Below, one piece after another: positions 10,901 through 63,196 of a DNA stretch of 63,196 bases. Both the position numbers and the translations under genes were made by a program. Source of the DNA: an uncultured Eubacteriales bacterium (GTDB taxonomy: Bacteria > Bacillota > Clostridia > Christensenellales > CAG-917); the NCBI GenBank assembly GCA_900547975.1, contig URIX01000005.1, forward strand, positions 1-63,196. The letters run 5' to 3'. Numbering within the stretch: the stretch's first letter is position 1; every line of letters starts with the position of its first letter. The notes under the pieces are model-generated. The model did no database searches. It was not told the DNA's origin and was given only the letters and a program-made list of their open reading frames with translations.

Positions 10901-13900
10901 CCGTAAGTTTGCGCAGTTACAGAATGTACAGAAGAACGGACGGCGTTGAAAGCGTCACCGATACGTACATCGAAGGCGACACCTATATCCGCTACAACGG
11001 CGAAGAAAGACAAATCGAAGAATTGAGATCTCGTTTGTTCGGCTACGTCAAGGACGAAAACGGCGATTATTACAGAACGATCGACCTCTACAACAAAATA
11101 AGCGATTACTACATCGGACTCGACGCTGCAATCGGTTGCGTGAATATGGGTCTCAAACTCGGCGGAATCGAATTAGGTTTCGGCGCAGGCGAGGAATTGC
11201 TCCCGGCATACATCCGCGACGGCAAAGCGCACTCCTGTTTCGACAACGGCAAGGAAATCGAGTACACCGACGAAACCAAGAATTCGTACACCTTCGAAGA
11301 TATCCCGACAAATATGTTCTACGACACCATCATCACGGTGGGCTTCTCGGTTGAACTCGAACTCGGTGTTACGGAAGGCAAACTCGACTTCGGTAAGATT
11401 TTGAGCAGTATAATCGGCGACCTCACGGGCGTCGTGGTCGAAATGCCCTCAACCGCGAAGGGTTATTCTTCCGCACACTTCAGACTCGACGTGTCGCTTA
11501 TGGTTGACATCTACGACCTCACCAAGTCCGAACTCAAAATCGAACTCATCAACATGACCGAAACGGGTTACGAGAGTTTGTGGCTTGGCGCATACTACGT
11601 CAACAACACGATTTACGTCAACCTCAAAGACGCGTTCAACATTCAAAAGTTCGCAATCGGCGGTCTTAACATCGCGGAAATTCTCAAAGACTACATCATC
11701 GACTTCGATTCGGATGACGAATACTTTGTTGCGGGCGGCTCGCAAACGGCTTCCACGAGCGAAGCGTTTGTGGCAAGCGGCGCACAATCGAGCGCAGTCG
11801 ACCTCAGCGACAAAGAACTCGCTCTTTCGATACTCATCAACAGAGATTTGCTCACTTTGAAACTCGGCGACAAACTCTTTGACACCATCCTCGAATACAT
11901 CCCCGAAGATTTGCTCGGATTCGACATCAAAGACTTGTTCTATCAAGAAGTCAACGGCGGCTTGCAAGTCGAAATCAACACGTCCGACAGCATCAACCTT
12001 TCCGTTGACGTCGCGCTCGGTCTCGACGGCGACAGATACAACGCAGATTCCGAGTATGTTAAATTAACGGACGAAACAGCCAAAGCAGAACAAAACGAAA
12101 GCCTTGCAAACAAGGTCAACGGTTCTGCAAATTACTATGTCTTTAAGCAAAGCGACACAGGTCACTATGTCAAGAGCGGCAACTCTGTTCGCGCAATCAC
12201 GTCCAAAGAAGAAAACGACGTTAAAGCAGGCGACCGCTATGCCAAGTACAAAGTCCAAACGGACGAAGGCGTAAATGTTCCGTATCTTGTCGAGGTGCTC
12301 GACAACGGAAAGGGCGACGGCAGCGAAGTGCTCTCCAAGACTCATCTTCCGATGCTCGCAGTCGGCGAAGAATCGATTGTCATTTACAAGCACGTTGCGG
12401 GCGCGGTTGCAAACAAGTCCTACGTCGGCGACGGCGGCAAGTATGATATGACGCTCGAACTCGGACTTGCAATCAAGAATCTCGACGTTGCGTTCACCAA
12501 CTCTCGCACATACGTCCTCAGCGGCGACGAACTTGCAGAGTACACCAATATGGACGACGTAGACCGCTTTACGCTCAGCGAAACCATCGACATTACGACG
12601 CAATTCAAGAGCGGCACGGGCAATGACATCGATTTGAGCGCGGTGCTTCAAGCGTTCTTCCCGAGCCTCACCGCAGAGCAACTTCTCGTCATCAAGGCGC
12701 AAGCGGACGACGGCGGCGACGTAAATCGTTCCTTGCAACTTGTTTTGGACGTAGATATTCAAGTTGCGGCATTGCTTAACTTTATGCGTACCGAACTTGT
12801 CAAATACACCGACGACGACGATCAATTCGACGGTGATATGGACTTGTTCAAGGTTATCGAGTTGCTCAAAAAAGTGTTTGAAAAACTCAAAAAGAACACC
12901 GATAGTTTGACAAAACTCATCGCAGACATCGCAAGTTACGTCAACCTCAGCGTAAGACTTCAAACGAAGGGCGGCAACGATTCCGAATATCACGACATGC
13001 TCGGCATTTATATGGTGGGCGGCACGTTCGAGTTGCTCTCGGAAGAAGAAAAGACCAACGTCACGAGCGAGCATTACGTAGACCCGAGCGAGAGATTCGA
13101 CCACTACTTCGAAACGAAGAACGGCAGTTACTATCTCGACGAAACGACGGGCGAATACAACTACATAACTTCGGATGCGTTTGCGGGAACGAGATATTCC
13201 TACGATTCGAGTTATTGCTACAAGAACGAAAAGGGCAACTACAAGCGCGTAAACGGCGGCTTGTTCGTTGACCTCAGTTACTTCAACATTCCGTCCTTGC
13301 GCGTCGACGCAAACGAAATCAGAAAACTCGTGAGCGGCATCATTGCGCAAAGTTCGACGGAAGCAATGGCGGCGGCGGACGACACCCCCGATGACGGCGA
13401 GAAAGAAAAGATTTCGTTCCCGCTTGTCAAAGACGACAAGATACTCGGATATATCAGAACGTTTGCATACGGTTTGCAAATCACGTCGAGATACATCAAG
13501 GTGCTTGCAAACGCAGACTATATCAACAGCATTCTCTCTCTCGTAATGGGCGAGAACGCGATCCAATTCGACGACAGTAAGTTCGTCAACAAACCCAATG
13601 TCACGCTTTACACGGACAACACGAGATACTCTTACGAGAATGCGCAAGACGTTATCAACGAATTCAAGACCAAAGTAACGGGTCTCGACAAATCGTCGGA
13701 CGAGTACAAGAAGTACGCAAAAGAACTCGAAAGCACTCTCACCAAGTCCAAGTATTTGTTCGATATCGTTTCGTATACGGGCGAGGGCAATGAGAACAAA
13801 GGAATTTACTACAAAGACAGCGACGGCGCATACGTCCAAAAGTCCGAATTGTCCACCGTCGAGCGCAAAGCATACGACGAACAAGTCAAAGTGGGCAAAG

Positions 13901-29270: not shown

Positions 29271-29449
29271 TGCAAAGGGTTTTTTGAAAAATTCGAATGC
29301 GGCATATAGGCATAATAATAAGGCGTATCGTCATAATCGAGCGGTAATAAAATAAACGAAAAACGAGCAGAAAATCAACAAAATATGCCGATTTTTTGTC
29401 AAGTTCGGTTTGCGTTTTGCAAACATAGCGGCGCAAGTACAAATTTTTA

Positions 29450-29477
29450 TTGAAAATATCGCCGCTTGTGATATAAT
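29450..29477 (+). promoter_or_regulatory. Extended -10 promoter for the SPFH/zinc-ribbon pair
   Basis: TTGAAA (29450-29455), 16-nt spacer, TG-A-TATAAT (TG 29469-29470, TATAAT 29472-29477). It lies 29 nt upstream of the ATG at 29506. Confidence 0.6.
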
Positions 29478-29505
29478 ACATATAATAAAAGCAACGGAGG
29501 CACTT

Positions 29506-30621
29506 ATGGGACTCATCAAAAGACAACTTCTCAAAGTTATAAGTTGGGAAGACAGTTCTCAAAATACATTAGTTCACAAATTCGAATATGACGACAGATA
29601 TGCGATTATGAAAGGTTCGGAACTCATCGTTCGCCCCTCGCAAGCCGCCATATTCGTGTATCGCGGAAGCGTATGCGACGTTTTCACCGAAGGCAGTTGG
29701 AAACTCGACGAAGGTTCGACGCCCGTACTCACCGCGCTCGCAAACTGGAAATACGCGTTTGAAAACCCCAAACAAATCGACGTTTATTACGTCAGTTTGA
29801 AAAGATTCACTCAAATGAAGTGGGGCACGCCCAATCCCGTTATGATGCGCGACAAGGACTTCGGAATGATTCGTATCGCAGGTCACGGCGAGTATTCCTT
29901 CCACGTTATGAATCCCGAGCTCTTTATGAAAGAGATTTTCGGCGCAACGCATTCCTACAAGACCGAGGACATCGAGGAGCATCTCAAATCTTTGGTGCTT
30001 GCACAACTTACGGATATGCTCGGCGAATGCGAGATTCCCGCGCTCGAACTTGCAGCAAACTATCTCGAAATCGGCGACACCGTATGCAAGGAAGTGAAGC
30101 CCAGATTCAACGAGCTCGGACTTGACATCGATTCAGTCATAGTGCGCAACTTCAAGTTGCCCGAAGCCGTCGAAAAGGCGATGGACCAACGCACCACTCT
30201 CGGCGTCTTCGACGGCAAGATGGGCGAGTACGCCCAATACGAATCCGTGCAAGCAATGCGCGACGCGGCAAAAAATCCCGGAATGGGCGGTATGTTCGGC
30301 GCGGCAGGCATCGGTCTCGGAATGGGCGCAAGAGTGGGCAATCAATTCGCGCAAAACCTCGACGAAGCGCAAACTCAAAAAGTCAAATGCGCAAAATGCG
30401 GCGCGTCCGTCAAAGCGGGTGCGAAATTCTGCCCCGAGTGTGGCGCAAAGGTCGGCGCAGAAGAAACCGTAAAATGCTCTAAATGCGGCGCAAGCGTTCC
30501 GCAAGGCGCAAAATTCTGCTCCGAATGCGGTCAACCGATGAACGTCGTATGCCCCAAGTGCGGTGCAAAAGTTAAGTCGGGTATGAAATTCTGCCCGGAA
30601 TGCGGCGCAAAAATCGGCTGA
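29506..30621 (+). CDS. SPFH/Band-7 domain protein (B. subtilis YdjI-like) with a C-terminal triple zinc-ribbon tail
   Basis: ATG at 29506 behind GGAGG (29496-29500). The N-terminus MGLIKRQLLKVISWED...IVRPSQAAIFVYRG is typical of the YdjI-type SPFH family. The C-terminus has three CxxC-x10-CxxC units (KCAKCGASVKAGAKFCPECG, KCSKCGASVPQGAKFCSECG, VCPKCGAKVKSGMKFCPECG; nt 30376-30618). Confidence 0.8.
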   Translation: MGLIKRQLLKVISWEDSSQNTLVHKFEYDDRYAIMKGSELIVRPSQAAIFVYRGSVCDVFTEGSWKLDEGSTPVLTALANWKYAFENPKQIDVYYVSLKRFTQMKWGTPNPVMMRDKDFGMIRIAGHGEYSFHVMNPELFMKEIFGATHSYKTEDIEEHLKSLVLAQLTDMLGECEIPALELAANYLEIGDTVCKEVKPRFNELGLDIDSVIVRNFKLPEAVEKAMDQRTTLGVFDGKMGEYAQYESVQAMRDAAKNPGMGGMFGAAGIGLGMGARVGNQFAQNLDEAQTQKVKCAKCGASVKAGAKFCPECGAKVGAEETVKCSKCGASVPQGAKFCSECGQPMNVVCPKCGAKVKSGMKFCPECGAKIG

Positions 30622-40056: not shown

Positions 40057-41166
40057 ATGAAAAGAACTTATCCGAGTTGGTTAGAGGGTCAACTCAACAG
40101 CAAGCAAACCGAGTATACGAAGCCTACAAGGTTGCTCGGTGACGACGGCAAATTGCTCGCCCCCGGTTGGGCAAGACACAACGTATTCGAATACGACCGC
40201 GAAAAAGCAAAACCCGCAAACCGTAAAAAAGAATGGGATTTCTATCAAATCTCTAACGGCGAATTTATGGTGCAAATCAGTTTTGCAAACATCTCTATCG
40301 GCGGCTACGCGCAAGCGTCCATAACCGACCTTCGCCACGCGCATAAAAAGAGCAAAATCCATTCGGGTACGATTCTCGAATGTACCGCGCTGTTTTTGGG
40401 CGGCAAAAAATATATGCTTCCCCCAAAGGGCGACGAGCCGAACGTTCTCGACCACACCGTCGGCAAAACGCATATGAAAGTCGTCACCGAAACCAACGTC
40501 AGAACAATGTATTTCAAGGGTAAGTTCAAAGGCAAAGAGGTCGAGGCAAACTTCACTATGGACATTATGGACGGACTTGAAAACATCACCACCGTGCTTC
40601 CGTTCAAAGACAATCCCACGAGATACTTTATGACCACCAAACAAAACTGTATGCCCTGCGAAGGCACTTTCCGCTGGGGCGAGAAGGTTTGGAAATTCGA
40701 TAAAAAGGACACGTTTGCTTTTCTCGACTGGGGCAGAGTCAACACCCCCTACAAAATGGTTTGGTACTGGGGCAACGGCTCGAAGGTTGTTCAAGGTCCC
40801 GACGGAAAAGACCATATGTTCGGCTTTGAAATCACTTGGGGTATCGGCGACGAGTCAAACGCCACCGAAACCGCAATCTTCTGGGACGGCAAAGCCCACA
40901 AATTCGGCCCCGTCGACGTCGAAGTTTTCCCCAAACCCGACAAATTTACCGAGCCTTGGCACTTCGTTTCGCAAGACGGTCGTTTCGATTTCACGATGAC
41001 TCCGTTCTACGACCATCACGGCGACCTCAATGTCCTCAATCTTCTTCGTATGCATTGCCATCAAGTTCACGGTATTTGGAACGGAACGGCAATCCTCGAT
41101 GACGGCACGAAAGTCGAGGTGAGGGATATGTATGCGTTTTGCGAATATTGCGAGAACAAGTGGTAA
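40057..41166 (+). CDS. DUF2804 domain protein
   Basis: 369 aa with SD GGAGG. The segment KEWDFYQI...FMVQISFANISIGGY is typical of DUF2804. Confidence 0.7.
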   Translation: MKRTYPSWLEGQLNSKQTEYTKPTRLLGDDGKLLAPGWARHNVFEYDREKAKPANRKKEWDFYQISNGEFMVQISFANISIGGYAQASITDLRHAHKKSKIHSGTILECTALFLGGKKYMLPPKGDEPNVLDHTVGKTHMKVVTETNVRTMYFKGKFKGKEVEANFTMDIMDGLENITTVLPFKDNPTRYFMTTKQNCMPCEGTFRWGEKVWKFDKKDTFAFLDWGRVNTPYKMVWYWGNGSKVVQGPDGKDHMFGFEITWGIGDESNATETAIFWDGKAHKFGPVDVEVFPKPDKFTEPWHFVSQDGRFDFTMTPFYDHHGDLNVLNLLRMHCHQVHGIWNGTAILDDGTKVEVRDMYAFCEYCENKW

Positions 41167-41350
41167 AAACGCGCTATTTGGCGTGATACGTCGTCAGCGA
41201 ACCTCGACCGTCAATTCACGTACTATTTGTACGTTAGGATTGCCGTTCGAGGGACGCTTCCTTGTCTGACGCTCAAATATCGCGTTTTTAACAAGTACTA
41301 AGCTGAGCGAGCGCTGCTTCCTTGTTCTTCATCGAAATATTGTATTTTTG
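41167..41350 (+). repeat. Gene-3'-end hairpin-plus-tail repeat, locus R1 (tail present twice)
   Basis: Apex ACGTAC-TATTT-GTACGT (41219-41235) with imperfect outer arms 41206-41218 / 41236-41250. Tail copies CGCTTCCTTGTCTGACGCTCAAATATCGCGTTTTT (41256-41290) and CTGCTTCCTTGTTCTTCATCGAAATATTGTATTTTT (41315-41350). The 5' box AAAACGCGCTATTTGGCG matches 50262-50280. Confidence 0.65.
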
Positions 41351-42698: not shown

Positions 42699-45416
42699 TT
42701 ATGCGGAAAGGACTACGCCTTTCTTTTTGCGCACCAAACGTGCGATTGCTTTTGCAATTTCAACCATAGGAATAATCGAGATTGCAAGCGCGATTGCAAT
42801 GCCGTATTCCTCTATGTTGAGTTCTGCAAGTTCAAACGCTTTTGCAAGGAACGGCACTTCCACGACGAGAGTCGTTAGCAACAGCGAAAGTGCTCCTGCG
42901 CCCCAAAGCCACCAGTTTTGTTTCTTGATTTTGAAAATCGAGCCGTGCAAGGAACGCATATTGAATGCGTGGAAGATTTCCGCCATAGAGAGGGTCAAAA
43001 ACGCCATAGACGAGCCGAGCGTTTCCGCGCTGTACAAGCCGTTTGCGATTGCTTCGGCGTGGTGCATTTTTGCAAGCACTTCCGCGCCGATAAAGTAGGA
43101 CGCTATGGTTATGAGGGTGATAAGCACGCCCTGATAGCCTATTGCAAAGCCCATACCGTTTGCGAAAATTCCGTCTTTGCTGTTCCTCGGCGGACGGTTC
43201 ATAATGTCGCGCTCGGGCGATTCCATACCCAGCGAGAGAGCGGGGAAGCAGTCGGTTATGAGGTTTATCCAAAGCAAATGCGCAGGCTTGAATATCGTGA
43301 AGTTCGCAAGCGTTGCGATAAATATCGAGAGCACTTCCGAGAGGTTGGACGCAAGCAAGAATTGAATGGATTTGCGGATATTGTCGTAGATGCGTCTGCC
43401 TTCGCCGACCGCCGATACGATGGTTGCGAAGTTGTCGTCGGTGAGAATCATATCTGCAACGTTTTTGGTGACGTCCGTACCCGTTATGCCCATACCCACG
43501 CCGATGTCCGCATTTTTGATGGACGGTGCGTCGTTCACGCCGTCGCCGGTCATTGCAGTGATGTATCCTTTTGCGCGCCACGCGTTGACGATTCTCGTCT
43601 TATGTTCGGGTTGAACGCGCGCGTATACCGAGTATTTTTCGACGTCGTTTGCAAAATCTTCGTCGCTTATATTGTCGAGTTCCGCGCCCGTAATAGCTTC
43701 GGACGGGTCTGTGATTATGCCCAGTTGCATTGCGATTGCGACGGCGGTGTCCTTGTGGTCGCCCGTTATCATTATGGGGCGGATGCCTGCCTTTCTGCAC
43801 TCGTCGATTGCGGGTTTAACTTCCGGACGTACGGGGTCTATCATACCCACGAGACCAACGAAGCACATATCTGTTTCGTCTTGTTCGGTGGTGTATTCGC
43901 TCTTTTGCTCGTCAAGGCGTTTTTTTGCAACCGCAAGCACGCGCAACGCTCTGTCCGCCATTTCCTTGTTTGCGGAAAGAATTTCCTCGCGCTTGTCGTC
44001 GGTCATAGGCGTTTCTTGTCCGTCTTCGAGATAGAAAGCGCAGCGTTTTACGATTTCGTCGGGCGCACCTTTGGTGAATTGCAACACTTCGCCGTTATTA
44101 TCGGTGTGTACCGTGGTCATCATCTTACGCATAGAGTCGAAAGGTATTTCGCCCACGCGCGGATAAAGTTTCTTTTGCTCGTTCTTGTCAAAAGACAGGG
44201 ATTTTGCGTAATTTACGAGCGCGCACTCTGTCGGCTCGCCCGTTGCCTCGCCTTTTTCTTCGTCGTATTCTGCGTCCGAGCAGAGCGACATAGCGTTTGC
44301 AAGCAAGTTTTCGTCGCTGCCGTAGTGGTCTACTACGGTCATTTTGTTTTGGGTGAGAGTGCCCGTTTTGTCCGAGCATATGATTTGCGTGCAACCGAGA
44401 GTTTCGACGGCGGTGAGTTTGCGTATGATAGCGTTGCGCTTTGACATATTCGTTACGCCAATCGAAAGAACTATCGTGACGACGGTGGCAAGCCCTTCGG
44501 GAATCGCCGCAACCGCCAACGATACCGCAATCATAAACGTGTTGAGTATTGTTGTCGCCGTGTCCGCTTTGAGAGTTCCGTCAACGCCCGAGCGAATGAG
44601 ACTGACCGCAAATATCACCACGCAAATGCCTATGACGAGGTAGGTGAGGACTTTGCTTAATTGCGACAACTTTTGTTGCAAGGGAGTTTTGCCTTCTTTT
44701 GCTTGGGTGAGGGCGTTTGCGATTTTGCCCATTTCGGTGTCCATACCCGTTGCCACGACGACCGCTTTTCCTCTGCCGTACACGACGGTGCTTCCCATAA
44801 ACGCCATATTTTTTCTGTCGCCGAGAGGCACTTCGCCGCTCGGTGCGTCTATGACGTCGCAGGTTTTAAGCACGGGCACGGATTCGCCCGTGAGCGCGGC
44901 TTCTTCGATTTTCATACTCGCGCACTCTATTATTCTTGCGTCCGCAGGCACCGCGTCTCCCGCTTCGAGTACGATTACGTCGCCGACAACCAAGTCTTCG
45001 CTCTTGACGACAACCAAGTGTCCGTCGCGTATGACTTTCGACGTGGCGGCGGCTATCTTTTGAAGCGCGTCGATGGCTTTTTCGGCTTTGCTTTCTTGCG
45101 CCACGCCGAGAATGGCGTTGATTATGACGACCGCCATAATGATGATGACGTCGGACGGGAACTCTTTTGTTGCGCTCGACGCGTTGTTGACCGCGGTCAA
45201 TACGCCCGAAATTATCGCCGCAACGATGAGAATCAGCGTCATAGGCTCGATAAATTGCTTCAGAAATCGCAAAATAATCGGCTCTTTTTTGCCTTCGGCA
45301 AGTTTGTTTTTGCCGTTCTTTTCAAGACGAGCGGTCGCCTCTTGCGAGGATATGCCGTCCTGAGTCGTTTCGACGTTCGTGCATACGTCTTCGACGGATT
45401 CGAGATAGTGTTTCAT
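42699..45416 (-). CDS. P-type cation-transporting ATPase (Ca2+/PMCA-SERCA-like, P2 type)
   Basis: DKTGTLT phosphorylation motif, TGES, MITGDH, GDGVNDAPS and ten TM segments. ATG at 45416 lies behind AGGTG; the extension to 45500 has no RBS. Confidence 0.95.
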   Translation of the reverse strand: MKHYLESVEDVCTNVETTQDGISSQEATARLEKNGKNKLAEGKKEPIILRFLKQFIEPMTLILIVAAIISGVLTAVNNASSATKEFPSDVIIIMAVVIINAILGVAQESKAEKAIDALQKIAAATSKVIRDGHLVVVKSEDLVVGDVIVLEAGDAVPADARIIECASMKIEEAALTGESVPVLKTCDVIDAPSGEVPLGDRKNMAFMGSTVVYGRGKAVVVATGMDTEMGKIANALTQAKEGKTPLQQKLSQLSKVLTYLVIGICVVIFAVSLIRSGVDGTLKADTATTILNTFMIAVSLAVAAIPEGLATVVTIVLSIGVTNMSKRNAIIRKLTAVETLGCTQIICSDKTGTLTQNKMTVVDHYGSDENLLANAMSLCSDAEYDEEKGEATGEPTECALVNYAKSLSFDKNEQKKLYPRVGEIPFDSMRKMMTTVHTDNNGEVLQFTKGAPDEIVKRCAFYLEDGQETPMTDDKREEILSANKEMADRALRVLAVAKKRLDEQKSEYTTEQDETDMCFVGLVGMIDPVRPEVKPAIDECRKAGIRPIMITGDHKDTAVAIAMQLGIITDPSEAITGAELDNISDEDFANDVEKYSVYARVQPEHKTRIVNAWRAKGYITAMTGDGVNDAPSIKNADIGVGMGITGTDVTKNVADMILTDDNFATIVSAVGEGRRIYDNIRKSIQFLLASNLSEVLSIFIATLANFTIFKPAHLLWINLITDCFPALSLGMESPERDIMNRPPRNSKDGIFANGMGFAIGYQGVLITLITIASYFIGAEVLAKMHHAEAIANGLYSAETLGSSMAFLTLSMAEIFHAFNMRSLHGSIFKIKKQNWWLWGAGALSLLLTTLVVEVPFLAKAFELAELNIEEYGIAIALAISIIPMVEIAKAIARLVRKKKGVVLSA

Positions 45417-45497
45417 AGATTCACCTTTATTTATAATAAGAGTATTTTTTATATAATTATTCCATAACTGCACGCAGTGCAATTTATTATTCCTCTG

Positions 45498-45905
45498 CAA
45501 GGGTGTAGGGGTGTACTCTAAATGAAGCTTCCCCTTTCCTCACGTGTTTTCCCTATCTGCGTTCCCCCTCTGCACAAGTTTGAGGGAACCCACGCCGACC
45601 GCGTAGCGGGGGACAACACTCGGCTCTCGCATAGAAAAGTATCGTCCTCTTGTTATTCCACTCGTTCACGGGCGAAAAAGCCACACTCGCCCGTTCACTT
45701 GTACTAATCGTCAAGCTCGGCGCTCATAGGCTCGCCGCCTTGCGGCTCGTGTTCCGTCTGCGAAAGAGTGCAGATGGATAGCGCAAACAAAAAAGACCTA
45801 TCCTGACGGATAAGTCTCATCATTTCAAATAAAACCGGAGACAATGCTCGTGTTAGCGGCTTTATTGCACTTTAGGGAAAAGTGCCGATTACTCCCTTAT
45901 TTACT
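45498..45905 (+). repeat. Structured intergenic repeat, copy B (subfamily 1)
   Basis: Starts with CAAGGGTGTAGGGG. The 5' half is alignable to copy C (CTTCCCC..CCTCACGTGTTT..GTTCCCCCTCTGCA...TTTGAGGGAACCCACG..). The core 45637-45761 is near-identical to copy A. It contains hairpin ACGGGCGA (45668-45675) / TCGCCCGT (45687-45694). Confidence 0.7.
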
Positions 45906-46120
45906 GCGATTGTATCATAACTTGTTTTGCTCGTCAAACGATTTGTTTGTCCGACACAACGAGTTTGTATACAATTTTTGCCTTATTTGTTTATTAATAC
46001 TTGCTTGATAATCGTTTGGCGCCCGTTTGACGATTGCTTAAAATTTGTTTTGCGATTCACGTTCGATTGACGATTATTTTTTTGCTTTTAGTCGGTTTGC
46101 CTTTTGCGTTTTTGCGTTGC

Positions 46121-50114: not shown

Positions 50115-50143
50115 AACCGCACCAAACAGCGACTAGCTTTGTC

Positions 50144-50205
50144 AAAGCCCTTCGGTCACTCGTCGTGTACGCCAAGTACACTAGGCGAGAGCCCGAAGGG
50201 CTTTT
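50144..50205 (+). terminator. Long hairpin terminator with GTAC-N5-GTAC apex
   Basis: AAAGCCCTTCGG (50144-50155) pairs with CCGAAGGGCTTT (within 50191-50204). An inner stem CTCGTC/GGCGAG carries one G-U. The apex is GTGTAC-GCCAA-GTACAC (50165-50181), followed by a T-run. It starts 30 nt after the stop codon. Confidence 0.65.
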
Positions 50206-50261
50206 TCGCGCCATTCATCTGTTTGGCACACTTAGAGGAAAGTGGGCGCAAGATTCTTCTA

Positions 50262-50445
50262 AAAATGCGCTATTGAGCGAATAACTTTGGACGCGATTGA
50301 CGCAAGCGTAGCAATCGCTATTCCGTCACTTCGTTCCTTACAAAACCGTTCACGCAAATAGTCACGTACGCCAAGTACGCTCCTATCTGTGTGAGCGGTT
50401 TTTCCTTGCTCTTCATCTCAATATCGCGGTTTTAGTTAAATATTT
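50262..50445 (+). repeat. Gene-3'-end hairpin-plus-tail repeat, locus R2
   Basis: 5' box AAAAATGCGCTATTGAGCG. A long imperfect hairpin spans 50342-50369 / 50375-50403 with apex ACGTAC-GCCAA-GTACG. The tail is TTCCTTGCTCTTCATCTCAATATCGCGGTTTT (50402-50433). Confidence 0.65.
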
Positions 50446-50539: not shown

Positions 50540-50910
50540 CGGGGTGACGTTTAGAACTCTAAATACAACTTCCCCCTTCCTCACGTGTTTCCCCTACCGC
50601 CGTTCCCCCTCTGCATACTTTGAGGGAACCCACGGCGTCCGCTTCGCGTGGGGCAACACTCGGCACTCGCATAGATAGGGACATTTCTCTATTTATGCCA
50701 CTGCGCTTTGTGCGCCAGCTACGCATCCAAACGGCGCAGTCGCTTGTACTGTCCGTCAAGCTCGGCGCTCCATTTTCTCGCCGCCTTGCGGCTCGCACCC
50801 TGAATTGGCACATTCCGCGTATAAGAACGCACTGAATAAGTGTTCGTTCGAGTTTGGGTGTCCCACCCGAACGAGCAAAACACGTGAGGAAGGGGGGAGT
50901 TCTATTAAAT
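50540..50910 (+). repeat. Structured intergenic repeat, copy C (subfamily 2; the only complete copy with a closing stem)
   Basis: A 24-bp closing stem pairs 50567-50590 with 50878-50901 (23 Watson-Crick pairs plus one U-G that works only on the + strand). Internal hairpins: GTTCCC..GGGAAC, CCCACG..CGTGGG, CATAGATAG..CTATTTATG, CTGCGC (50701-50706) / GCGCAG (50734-50739), GGGTG (50856-50860) / CACCC (50864-50868). Confidence 0.75.
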
Positions 50911-62154: not shown

Positions 62155-62865
62155 ATGATAAGTATTTTTGACAGCGACATAAACGAATTGACGGCATACG
62201 TTGCGAAAAACGCGACCAAAGTTTACGCTTACGACGAGAGTAAAGCATTACCTGTCAGCGAGCATAGCGAACTGATTTTGACCAAGGACAGCGCATACGA
62301 ACTCGGCGGAAGCGATATGCCTTGCGCCGCCGCAACCGTCATTACCGGCAATTTGCCCATCGAAAACAAAATCGTTTTGGTCGGCAAAGAACTAAAAGAA
62401 ATCAAGAACGATTGCAATTATGCAAAAATAGTCATTCTCTCGGTCAAAGACACTGCCGAGGACGAACAGGCTATTTTCGACCTTGCCAAATCTTTGGAAT
62501 ACGCAAAGTACAAAGAGAACGTTCAAGGCTTTATGATGCGCACGTCAGTCATTAAGCAACGCGAACAAGTCAGAGTGTCAAAGACTGCCATCAAGCGCGG
62601 TTTATCTTTCGAAGCTCTCGGCGCAACCACAATCAAATCGTATTTGGCAAAAGATGTCGTCGAAGCGGTTACCGTAATTTTTGTTGCTGATGCCCGAATC
62701 GATTTCATACCGTTGCAACAGTTTTCATCTCACACTTCTCAAATTCTGTCTGCCTTCAATCACATTCTCGACAACGTACTCGTGGACTGCGCGCATTGCA
62801 ATTTGAAGGAGATTTGCGACAAAGTGGAGGGTATGAGGGAACTGCATATGCATCTGGTGCGATAA
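62155..62865 (+). CDS. Hypothetical protein (236 aa) with C-terminal Cys/His cluster, co-directional with cooC
   Basis: ORF only, with a weak RBS. The C-terminal motif is VDCAHCNLKEICDKVEG. I cannot assign a family. A CO-dehydrogenase/ACS-associated small subunit-like role is a guess from the cooC neighbourhood only. Confidence 0.45.
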   Translation: MISIFDSDINELTAYVAKNATKVYAYDESKALPVSEHSELILTKDSAYELGGSDMPCAAATVITGNLPIENKIVLVGKELKEIKNDCNYAKIVILSVKDTAEDEQAIFDLAKSLEYAKYKENVQGFMMRTSVIKQREQVRVSKTAIKRGLSFEALGATTIKSYLAKDVVEAVTVIFVADARIDFIPLQQFSSHTSQILSAFNHILDNVLVDCAHCNLKEICDKVEGMRELHMHLVR

Positions 62866-62990
62866 TTCGAGTATAATTTTGTCAGGCACGGCTTGTTCCA
62901 AAATCATGTACGCTATGTACATCGGGTTTTGTCTTAAGCCGTGCCTTTCTTGTTCTTCCTCTCAATATCGCGGTTTTGTTGTTGTACTCT
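62866..62990 (+). repeat. Gene-3'-end hairpin-plus-tail repeat, locus R3
   Basis: GGCACGGCTT (62885-62894) pairs with AAGCCGTGCC (62936-62945). The apex is ATGTAC-GCTAT-GTACAT (62906-62922). The tail is TTTCTTGTTCTTCCTCTCAATATCGCGGTTTT (62946-62977). Confidence 0.65.
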
Positions 62991-62991
62991 A

Positions 62992-63196
62992 CAAGAGTGT
63001 AGGGGAAAACCTAAAATAAAACATCACCCCTCCCCTTCGGGCTTTCCCCTATTGCTCAAACTTACGACATTTCTCTGCAAAATTGCACATCGTTCGCAAG
63101 AGGGGAAGTCGGCACTCACATAAATAGGGGCATTTCTCTACTTATGCCACTGCGCTTTGTGCGCCAGGCAGTGGCCAACGGACGGCGCAGTCGCTT
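62992..63196 (+). repeat. Structured intergenic repeat, copy D (subfamily 2; 3' part cut by the window edge)
   Basis: Starts with CAAGAGTGTAGGGG, like copy B. 63113-63196 aligns to 50668-50746 of copy C at roughly 85% (..CATTTCTCTA.TTATGCCACTGCGCTTTGTGCGCCAG...GGCGCAGTCGCTT). Confidence 0.7.

Follow-up and report, generated by a model that had tools for sequence, protein, structure and literature searches.

What is the G+C-rich, strongly self-complementary, non-coding island that lies within A+T-rich intergenic DNA at positions 50540-50910 of a 63,196-nucleotide contig from an uncultured Eubacteriales bacterium? An earlier reading, made from the letters of this contig alone (the sequence-only reading), had taken the island for one of four copies, A to D, of a structured intergenic element, the island itself being copy C. 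Three identities had been offered: a multi-copy structured non-coding RNA, a derivative of an IS200/IS605-type or omega-RNA-like element that has lost its open reading frame (ORF), or a large element of the REP or MITE (miniature inverted-repeat transposable element) kind. The whole contig is referred to here as the window. Its four stretches are copies of a clade-restricted repeat family that is undescribed within the scope of Rfam and of the literature as searched (see below), and we read the element as something other than a single new RNA gene that does one job in the cell. On balance we think it somewhat probable that the family is a modular repeat whose closest analogues are the BIME and BOX elements, spreading at the DNA level, transcribed passively, and keeping its hairpins for the sake of its own persistence or of neighbouring transcript ends. 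The basis of that reading is multiplicity, reassortment of modules, compensated hairpins, non-coding character, an intergenic location near gene 3' ends, tandem arrays and demonstrated strain turnover.

The repeat family and its hairpins

The window was searched with a profile made from the conserved core, with a covariance model and by BLAST against non-syntenic loci. The profile finds exactly four core copies, all on the + strand, and the covariance model agrees, so that the four same-orientation copies that had been claimed are confirmed; all copies of the family are intergenic. The cores lie at 1-123, 45620-45757, 50660-50800 and 63109-63195, the first cut by the start of the window and the last by its end. 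Repeated DNA, as judged by BLAST against loci from other genomic places, extends over 1-327, 45493-45773, 50544-50869 and 62859-63195. The conserved blocks that had been listed are all present in the sequence, and chance is ruled out as their source: blocks of 19-30 nt recur in at least 114 loci of other genomes.

The distribution of the family was scanned in one genome per prokaryotic species with the pattern TCGGCGCTC-N4-10-TCGCCGCCTTGCGGC, which yielded at least 114 loci. Among the matches listed, these belong to about 18 species-level metagenome-assembled genomes of uncultured human-gut Clostridia (labelled Christensenella sp. UBA6880/UBA7588/UBA767, Firmicutes bacterium CAG:238, UMGS1170/1331 and similar), the exceptions being three chance hits in high-G+C genomes; a few of the bins are clearly misnamed. 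Well-sampled genomes have at least 9-14 exact-pattern loci each, and the covariance model identifies 128 copies in 791 kb of this clade's DNA. A second pattern, applied to the JGI metagenome collection, added only 2 further loci, both with ordinary neighbours; IMG/VR, the GenBank phages and the PLSDB plasmids gave 0 matches to the family. Rfam 15 has no match anywhere in the window at gathering thresholds, and in E-value mode (up to 10 for B and C, up to 5 for the full-length D) it returns only chance-level miRNA or snoRNA hits; the absence from known RNA families that had been surmised is borne out to that extent. Genes for tRNA or tmRNA are absent from the window. The family is not described in the literature full text that was searched by sequence string and by topic, nor in the available part of the supplements to a survey of structured RNAs of the human microbiome.

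The element does not encode protein. The spacing between anchor sequences takes every value from 97 to 105 nt, not steps of three, and a difference of loop length between B and C shifts every frame. ORFs of 30-84 amino acids that overlap copies on both strands were considered and rejected as coding, since insertions and deletions between copies shift every one of their frames.

What is conserved is the pairing. The covariance model was made from the core and a hand-drawn structure, and 128 copies were aligned to it; this alignment was chosen over one by MAFFT and RNAalifold because the latter places swapped hairpin variants out of register. In these copies, aligned by fitting to the model and sharing an ancestry that makes cell counts overstate independent events, 87.0% of cells are standard pairs, as against 77.5% in column shuffles. 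Changes on both sides are seen at 20 of the 26 pairs, and none of 500 shuffles reaches any of five measures; sliding the 3' partners by 1-3 columns, as a control, leaves pairing at only 27-48%. The stem of the middle hairpin, H2 (helix 4), is 99.7% paired with both-side changes at all six of its pairs, and it exists in at least six sequences across the copies: ACGGGCGA/TCGCCCGT versus TGCGCC/GGCGCA, and elsewhere GCAAACGA/TCGTTTGC, GCCGACAA/TTGTCGGC, GCCAACGA/TCGTTGGC and TGCGTGGC/GCCACGCA. H3 (helix 5) is also 99.7% paired, its GCCGC/GCGGC changing to GTCGC/GCGAC or ATCGC/GCGAT in copies that lie outside the selection exerted by the search pattern, and the base of H1 (helix 1) is 97.5% paired. 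Helix 2 reaches 77%, and a proposed outer helix around H2, which holds in one variant only, 61%. The compensatory hairpins of the sequence-only reading are real, three of them being kept in the core, and its suggested check of covariation in a larger set of copies comes out in its favour. The family accordingly has what marks a structured non-coding RNA, a conserved secondary structure with covariation, as seen in a model-fitted alignment of related copies.

Folding of the + strand is favoured but not established. The argument from G-U pairs that had been made for it is upheld by their excess over A-C cells in the three robust helices (80 versus 9); it is weakened by the origin of 66 of those 80 in one column, where 66 copies have G-U and 12 have A-U and pairing is therefore possible on the + strand only, and also by folding energy. 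The minimum free energy of the whole unit is lower on the minus strand in 69 of 78 units, by about 10 kcal/mol on average, and shuffle-corrected z-scores for copy C are equal on the two strands, at -7.1 (+) and -6.8 (-). Energy was set aside as a criterion of strand, because the G/A-rich complement of a C/U-rich strand folds better by virtue of its composition, and the advantage of the minus strand is probably such an effect.

Modular units, mosaicism and strain turnover

The architecture of the unit was derived from an alignment of about 80 copies. Its length, about 320 nt, is set by direct tandem copies that abut, ...GAATAAGTG being followed at once by AAGATTCTTCCTCTACAAGAG...; direct tandem copies are frequent, 320-443 nt apart. 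The unit begins with an optional upstream motif, TTCTTCCTCTACAAGAGTG..GGCGTGTACTCTAAAT, ending in CTCTAAAT. Next comes a C/U-rich 5' domain that is closed by a long-range helix and exists in three interchangeable versions, T1, T2 and T3. T1 and T3 are homologous, with the long-range helix kept by compensation (CCCCTATTGC/GCAAGAGGGG versus CTCCCACCAC/GCGGGGGAG); at that position T2 forms another helix (GTGTT.CCCC/GGGG.AACAC). The core of about 140 nt is made up of TCGGCACTC, H1, CCAC, the interchangeable H2, CTTGTACT..CGTCAAGYTCGGCGCTC, a variable loop, and CTCGCCGCCTTGCGGCTCG with H3, and invariant single-stranded blocks (TCGGCACTC, TTATGCCAC, CTTGTACT and CGTCAAGYTCGGCGCTC) lie between its hairpins. 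A 3' module of about 55 nt follows in one or two copies. Long forms go on to a terminal hairpin, whose stem exists in four or more compensated versions, then to AATTATTAATTATTCATTATTAATTATTAATT, where similarity ends sharply, and they have an (AATTATT)4-5 tail after the terminal hairpin. The core also contains a direct repeat of TCGGCACTC(R)CATAG and TCGGCGCTC(A)TAGG about 100 nt apart (50660-50674/50762-50776 in C and, likewise, 45620-45634/45716-45730 in B), and the 9-nt sequence TCGGCRCTC occurs as a direct repeat twice per core; the internal repeat could be a duplicated protein-binding site or the trace of an internal duplication.

The versions of the modules are mixed among the four copies of the window. 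Designating the H2 types as i and ii, all four combinations of 5' domain and H2 occur (A is T1/i, B is T2/i, C is T2/ii and D is T1/ii), from which we infer recombination between copies; optional inserts and variable 3' modules add to the mosaicism of the family at large. The two subfamilies that had been proposed, A with B and C with D, dissolve when full copies are compared: A and D share one 5' domain, B and C another, and only H2 divides A and B from C and D. What made them look like two groups is the loss of the 5' half of A and of the 3' half of D at the ends of the window. A mosaic module set, an extragenic location and many copies (at least 114 loci, all copies intergenic) are what characterize the REP and BIME sequences.

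The site of copy C shows that copies turn over. Conspecific strains with identical flanking genes are found there in three states: a T2 copy on the + strand (the window and contigs L128 and L132), a minus-strand T3 copy bounded by the same junctions, ...AAACGGGGTGA on one side and GAGCAAAACACG on the other (L129), and unrelated A+T-rich filler (L127, L130 and L131). Copy B is fixed: all conspecific strains that were examined have it. On its left side, A has one flank in L001 and another in L002. Many copies are retained at orthologous sites between species with flanks of only 80-87% identity; the cores of these copies, at 82-89% identity, are conserved about as well as the mostly coding flanks, which suggests constraint or gene conversion. 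The window starts in A and ends in D, and of the six contigs that have the gene next to A four, L003-L006, end inside A; it is from these ends within copies that the element is seen to break short-read assemblies.

Copy C itself is a medium form (50544-50875; all of its parts are on the + strand) with the CTCTAAAT motif, a T2-type 5' domain, the core, one 3' module and the terminal hairpin. Its C/U-rich 5' domain, delimited by reading the sequence and its fold, occupies 50566-50659. The long-range helix, GTGTT.CCCC (50585-50594) with GGGG.AACAC (50650-50659), encloses a hairpin GTTCCC/GGGAAC (50602-50607 with 50624-50629) and CGC-UUC-GCG (50640-50648); T1 and T3 copies have a different helix at this place, with compensating changes. 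H1, CATAGATAGGG/CTCTATTTATG (50670-50697), has a conserved base, CATAG/TTATG, that includes a conserved G-U, and a middle that is perfect in C and mismatched in most copies. H2 is TGCGCC/GGCGCA (50711-50738). The most conserved block, GTCAAGCTCGGCGCTC-loop-CTCGCCGCCTTGCGGCTCG (50756-50795), contains H3, GCCGC-CTT-GCGGC (50780-50792), with which an alternative pairing, CGGCG/CGCCG, competes in this copy. The 3' module CACCCTGAATTGGCACATTCCGCGTATAAGAACGCACTGAATAAGTGTTCG and the terminal hairpin TTCGTTCG..GGGTG-TCC-CACCC..CGAACGAG complete the copy (50796-50875); other copies have different, compensated stems in the terminal hairpin.

The sequence-only reading saw copy C as closed by a 24-bp stem with a single U-G pair. 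The stem exists, within an inverted repeat of 24-29 bp with one T-G pair (50562-50590/50878-50906), and it is not a feature of the family: among 38 copies with the motif, only C has an inverted TTCCTCACGTGT on its 3' side. The stretch at 50878-50906 (minus strand) is an inverted fragment of the first 29 or so nucleotides of a T2-type 5' domain, seen at the C locus only (the window, L128 and L132). The closing stem is the product of a local rearrangement, an inverted fragment of a second copy, and it lies outside the family fold.

Competing explanations

On the modular-repeat reading, copies would spread as DNA, and swap their modules, through recombination or gene conversion with one another (for which part of the case has been shown), possibly helped by some enzyme encoded elsewhere in the genome, and would be transcribed passively along with neighbouring genes. 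The + strand RNA would fold into a multi-hairpin body that could block exonucleases or terminate or insulate transcription. Selection may then keep the hairpins, for the persistence of the element or for neighbouring transcript ends, precisely because a folded RNA body could protect, terminate or insulate.

The placement of copies among genes bears on this. The 3' end of a gene faces the element 113 times and the 5' end 61 times; flanking gene pairs are convergent in 20 cases, co-directional in 28 and, rarely, divergent (4 of 52). Orientation relative to the local gene strand is unbiased (24 opposite, 23 same), and no replication- or gene-strand bias was found; on one contig 8 of 8 copies are co-oriented over 60 kb, and on other contigs orientations are mixed. 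The neighbours are housekeeping genes such as uvrA, a gyrB-like gene, glnS and obg, and no protein family recurs next to the element: clustering of neighbouring ORFs of at least 150 amino acids gives only syntenic orthologues and common (ABC-type) paralogues.

Of the three identities originally offered, a large REP- or MITE-like element fits best, though not as a MITE in the strict sense. Terminal inverted repeats are lacking in the family, in that only the C locus (other strains included) has the 5' motif inverted at its 3' side, and the hairpin and (AATTATT)n end of the long forms have no mirror at the 5' end. The search for target-site duplications that had been proposed gave nothing definable at the ragged, modular boundaries: the C-site junctions at AAACGGGGTGA and GAGCAAAACACG show no clear duplication, and they represent one polymorphic site with filler alleles. 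As to REP, the upstream motif CTACAAGAGTGTAGGG of some copies contains a CTAC...GTAG pair, in a unit of ten times the REP size.

Several observations weigh against the modular-repeat reading. Neither a transposition mechanism nor defined termini, a target-site duplication or a clean-edged empty site was found for the family. The retention of orthologous copies fits host selection as well as it fits selfish persistence. Invariant unpaired blocks and the multi-helix build exceed what simple REP, BOX or ERIC sequences have, and are more typical of a functional RNA or ribonucleoprotein. The small hairpin of the T1 and T3 5' domains has UNCG-type loops (UUCG, UCCG, UACG), which fit an RNA fold and not a DNA fold, a hint of selection at the RNA level. 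Unit size, a multi-helix core with invariant unpaired blocks, three compensated 5' domains and a heptamer tail go beyond the known examples of interspersed repeats, and they lend some plausibility to explanations by a multi-copy RNA and by a transposon derivative. Neither of the two has positive support beyond structure.

In the better of these, every unit of about 320 nt would be an RNA gene with transcription of its own, and the products would be structured RNAs that act in trans; we regard it as possible, if rather unlikely. Runs within the C/U-rich 5' domain that resemble an anti-Shine-Dalgarno sequence (CCUCC, UCCC, and AUCACC as in the 3' end of 16S rRNA) would pair with ribosome-binding sites, or the RNA would be part of a ribonucleoprotein, a mode of action proposed at the same low level of confidence. 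Covarying hairpins with invariant unpaired blocks between them, the conserved G-U that alternates with A-U and can pair on the + strand only, and the UNCG-type tetraloops all speak for an RNA. So do the C/U-richness of all three 5' domain types despite their differing sequence and the keeping of orthologous copies across species. At the 5' edge of D the conserved upstream motif has the score of a weak promoter (TCTACA-18-TAAAAT, 9/12), but most copies have only a poor candidate for the -10 box (CTCTAAAT). Terminators are not consistent across copies and are lacking between tandem units, the conserved core has no terminator-like site, and beyond H3 the element may extend for as little as about 20 nt or for more than 500 nt. 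About one copy per 16-25 kb is far above any known family of regulatory small RNAs, module swaps and presence or absence by strain are unexpected for an essential RNA, and folding energy does not favour the + strand. As regards the multi-copy structured RNA that had been suggested, then, the covarying structure stands, and the case for a discrete gene is weakened by the weak promoter match and the inconsistent ends.

A bolder variant would have the core of about 140 nt and its variable 5' domain constitute a new class of functional structured RNA with tens to about 100 copies per genome, and not a passive repeat or relic. It might serve as the RNA component of a mobile or RNA-guided system of a new kind, with the protein encoded at another place in the genome, or as a massively multi-copy anti-Shine-Dalgarno 'sponge' or regulator. 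This, too, we consider improbable, at about one chance in a handful.

Less probable again is that the element is an ORF-less derivative of an RNA-guided or single-stranded-DNA transposon (an IS200/IS605-type PATE, a stand-alone omega-RNA- or HEARO-like scaffold, or an IS110 bridge-RNA relic) that is mobilized in trans by a distant autonomous copy. HEARO and omega RNAs are multi-helix scaffolds with conserved unpaired blocks and many ORF-less copies. The family resembles them in its large multi-helix scaffold, its conserved unpaired blocks and its many ORF-less copies; a few positions fold strand-asymmetrically, copies of opposite orientation sit at identical junctions in different strains, suggesting a preferred target, and TCGGCRCTC, twice per core, could be a protein-binding site. 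The associated genes and models are what is missing. No transposase, TnpA, TnpB, IscB or reverse transcriptase gene adjoins about 120 loci or occurs anywhere in the window (a gene elsewhere in these genomes is compatible with a search of that scope), in agreement with the lack of such adjacent ORFs that had been noted at the outset. Rfam, including HEARO and IS605-orfB, has no match even at E up to 10. Instead of two fixed subterminal hairpins with a bias of orientation, the family has ragged, modular, variable ends and 24 opposite versus 23 same orientations, and phage, plasmid and viral collections have none of it. A layout resembling TnpB with its omega RNA, minus-strand ORFs ending 19-40 nt from the core, was examined and rejected: these ORFs are uvrA, gyrB/parE-like, glnS, obg, RNase G-like and others. 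The derivation from an IS200/IS605 or omega-RNA-like element that had been put forward finds no support at the loci examined.

The weakest proposal, that copies are domesticated cis-acting cassettes kept by the host as terminators, insulators or mRNA-stabilizing ends for flanking genes, can draw on the preference for gene 3' ends and convergent pairs, on terminator-like hairpins, which lie both at the 5' edge (45469-45481; also upstream of D) and within long forms (with 181-201 as a bidirectional terminator), on related terminator cassettes with conserved tails nearby and on orthologous copies kept across species, but we think it very unlikely, given a conserved core without a terminator-like site, copies that also lie upstream of genes (B, in the leader region of an ATPase gene) or in tandem arrays, and a C site at which the copy is dispensable.

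If the modular-repeat reading is correct, common uncultured human-gut Clostridia give up a noticeable share of a small genome to one repeat family, with a density in the window of about one copy per 16 kb. The repeats fragment metagenome assemblies and mark the sites of strain-level rearrangement, and they would provide a ready marker for strain typing in the clade; because housekeeping operons have them in their untranslated regions, the stability of mRNAs and the termination of transcription may be affected. The family would also be an unusually rich natural experiment in the compensatory evolution of nucleic-acid helices. If it is instead a functional RNA, it would add a new large RNA class with an unknown partner.

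Copies, surroundings and known systems

Copies A and D, which the window cuts, were read whole from independent contigs that carry the neighbouring genes. Copy A, a long form (1-323, +), is truncated at its 5' side by the window start, so that its core is represented from H1 onward. It has the middle hairpin ACGGGCGA/TCGCCCGT (33-60, +), the block GTCAAGTTCGGCGCTC...CTCGCCGCCTTGCGGCTCG (77-116, +), a bidirectional terminator-like hairpin (181-201) between two 3' modules, a terminal hairpin GCGGG/CCCGC (275-287, +) and the heptamer-repeat tail (AATTATT)n (292-323, +). Repeat coverage falls sharply at 323-327, which extends the copy to about 323 from the 290 at which it had been thought to end. 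The full copy is L001:11073-11545 (minus strand), with a T1-type 5' domain. In the ends of long forms (292-323; L007:11437-11465) 4-5 tandem heptamers, AATTATT or CATTATT, directly follow a G+C-rich hairpin. This tail is promoter-like on the minus strand (TTAATA-17-AATAAT) and, with a strong minus-strand terminator lying about 100 nt downstream in copy A, a short minus-strand transcript is conceivable.

Copy B, a short form (45493-45773, +), combines the upstream motif CTCTGCAAGGGTGTAGGGGTGTACTCTAAAT and a T2-type 5' domain (45527-45619, +) with the core (45620-45757) and, on the 3' side, a short stub. It had been drawn out to 45905; BLAST against non-syntenic loci ends the repeated part near 45773, and 45774-45905 is unique DNA with a minus-strand terminator. 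The copy is antisense, with a promoter and terminator of the minus strand on one side and the start of a P-type ATPase gene on the other. This promoter/terminator pair (45793-45937, minus strand) is of separate interest: it comprises a promoter-like site, TTGACG-17-TACAAT with an upstream TG, and an 11-bp terminator about 90 nt later, and has a sub-threshold Rfam hit to the Streptococcus small RNA SSRC10 (31 bits, E = 7.7e-4). It may be a leader or attenuator, or a small RNA, upstream of the P-type cation ATPase gene (42699-45428, minus strand), with copy B antisense between the site and the ATPase start codon.

Copy D, a long form (62987-63196, +), is truncated at its 3' side by the window end and has the upstream motif CTCTACAAGAGTGTAGGGG, a T1-type 5' domain, H1 and an H2 of the type found in C. 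In full it is L007:10833-11465, where about 190 nt are inserted in addition and an (AATTATT)n tail is present. The element is often followed by a third repeat module, about 150 nt long, that starts with CACCAAGCAGACAATCTTGCGAAATTGCGGC... and has no Rfam match (L007:11160-11330 and 11520-11700; L091:2380-2540, minus strand); the 1.26 kb of non-coding DNA that separate copy D from the S10 ribosomal-protein operon contain it twice. On one low-coverage contig (L011:5283-5422) a CdhC-like gene is joined to a rubrerythrin gene by way of the short TTCTTGTTCTTCATCTCAATATCGCGGTT repeat, without copy D, either because of a real rearrangement or because the assembly is chimeric at that repeat.

Upstream of C, at 50115-50434 (+), there are accessory repeat modules, namely two long terminator-like hairpins with conserved tails (TTCCTTGCTCTTCATCTCAATATCGCGGTTTT). 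One module, GACGCGATTGAC...TTCGTTCC, which is free at 50289-50340 (+), is found inside the element at other loci. A second repeat family is represented at 41163-41350, 50115-50434 and 62873-62977 by a long imperfect hairpin with a GTAC...GTAC palindrome at its centre, a T-run and a conserved tail, TTCCTTGYTCTTCMTCTCAATATCGCGGTTTT; it looks like a rho-independent terminator cassette shared by unrelated genes, with stems that differ between copies.

The proteins of the window are housekeeping only, plus one giant: an uninterrupted ORF at 1624-29199 (+) of 9191 amino acids, with no Pfam hit on record and internally repetitive at the DNA level, conspecific contigs having versions of 9097-9191 amino acids. 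At 30379-30618, in the C-terminus of an SPFH/Band-7 protein (29410-30621), there are three tandem zinc-ribbon repeats encoded by 78-nt units that are 63-73% identical.

How, finally, does the family compare with known systems? ROOL, GOLLD, OLE and raiA resemble it in being large, multi-helix RNAs of Firmicutes hosts and of unknown function, but they are present once or a few times in a genome, frequently within prophages or at fixed positions, whereas the family has tens of copies with reshuffled modules and no Rfam match. The omega RNAs of HEARO/IscB and of TnpB have in common with it a scaffold of several hundred nucleotides, many mostly ORF-less copies and conserved unpaired blocks; the family differs from them in lacking a covariance-model match and, at the examined loci, a nuclease or transposase gene, and in its modular, variable ends. 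The interspersed bacterial intergenic repeats of 100-400 nt (bcr1-bcr18 of the Bacillus cereus group, ERIC/IRU, Correia/NEMIS and RUP) also have conserved secondary structure with compensatory changes and are in some cases transcribed. Those among them that are of the MITE type have terminal inverted repeats and target-site duplications, in contrast to the family, which has no such inverted repeats and no definable duplication.

The BOX elements of Streptococcus pneumoniae (boxA-boxB(n)-boxC) are similar in general plan: a Gram-positive host, no ORF, a predicted stable RNA fold, conserved end modules with a variable middle, and of the order of 100 copies per genome. The family is larger, and varies by three alternative 5' domains and interchangeable internal hairpins rather than by the number of one module. 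The BIMEs of Escherichia coli and its relatives, made of REP (PU) units, are likewise non-coding and intergenic, with many copies, in clusters, located mostly at gene 3' ends or between co-transcribed genes and composed of a few hairpin modules in varied combinations. They differ from the family in the size of the unit (a REP palindrome of about 35-40 nt, as against about 320-470 nt), in alternating the orientation of their units where tandem copies of the family are direct, and in the family's multi-helix core with invariant unpaired blocks. The hosts of the family are Clostridia, not Proteobacteria, and no RAYT transposase is linked to it; the likeness to BIMEs is one of plan, and no similarity of sequence is to be expected.

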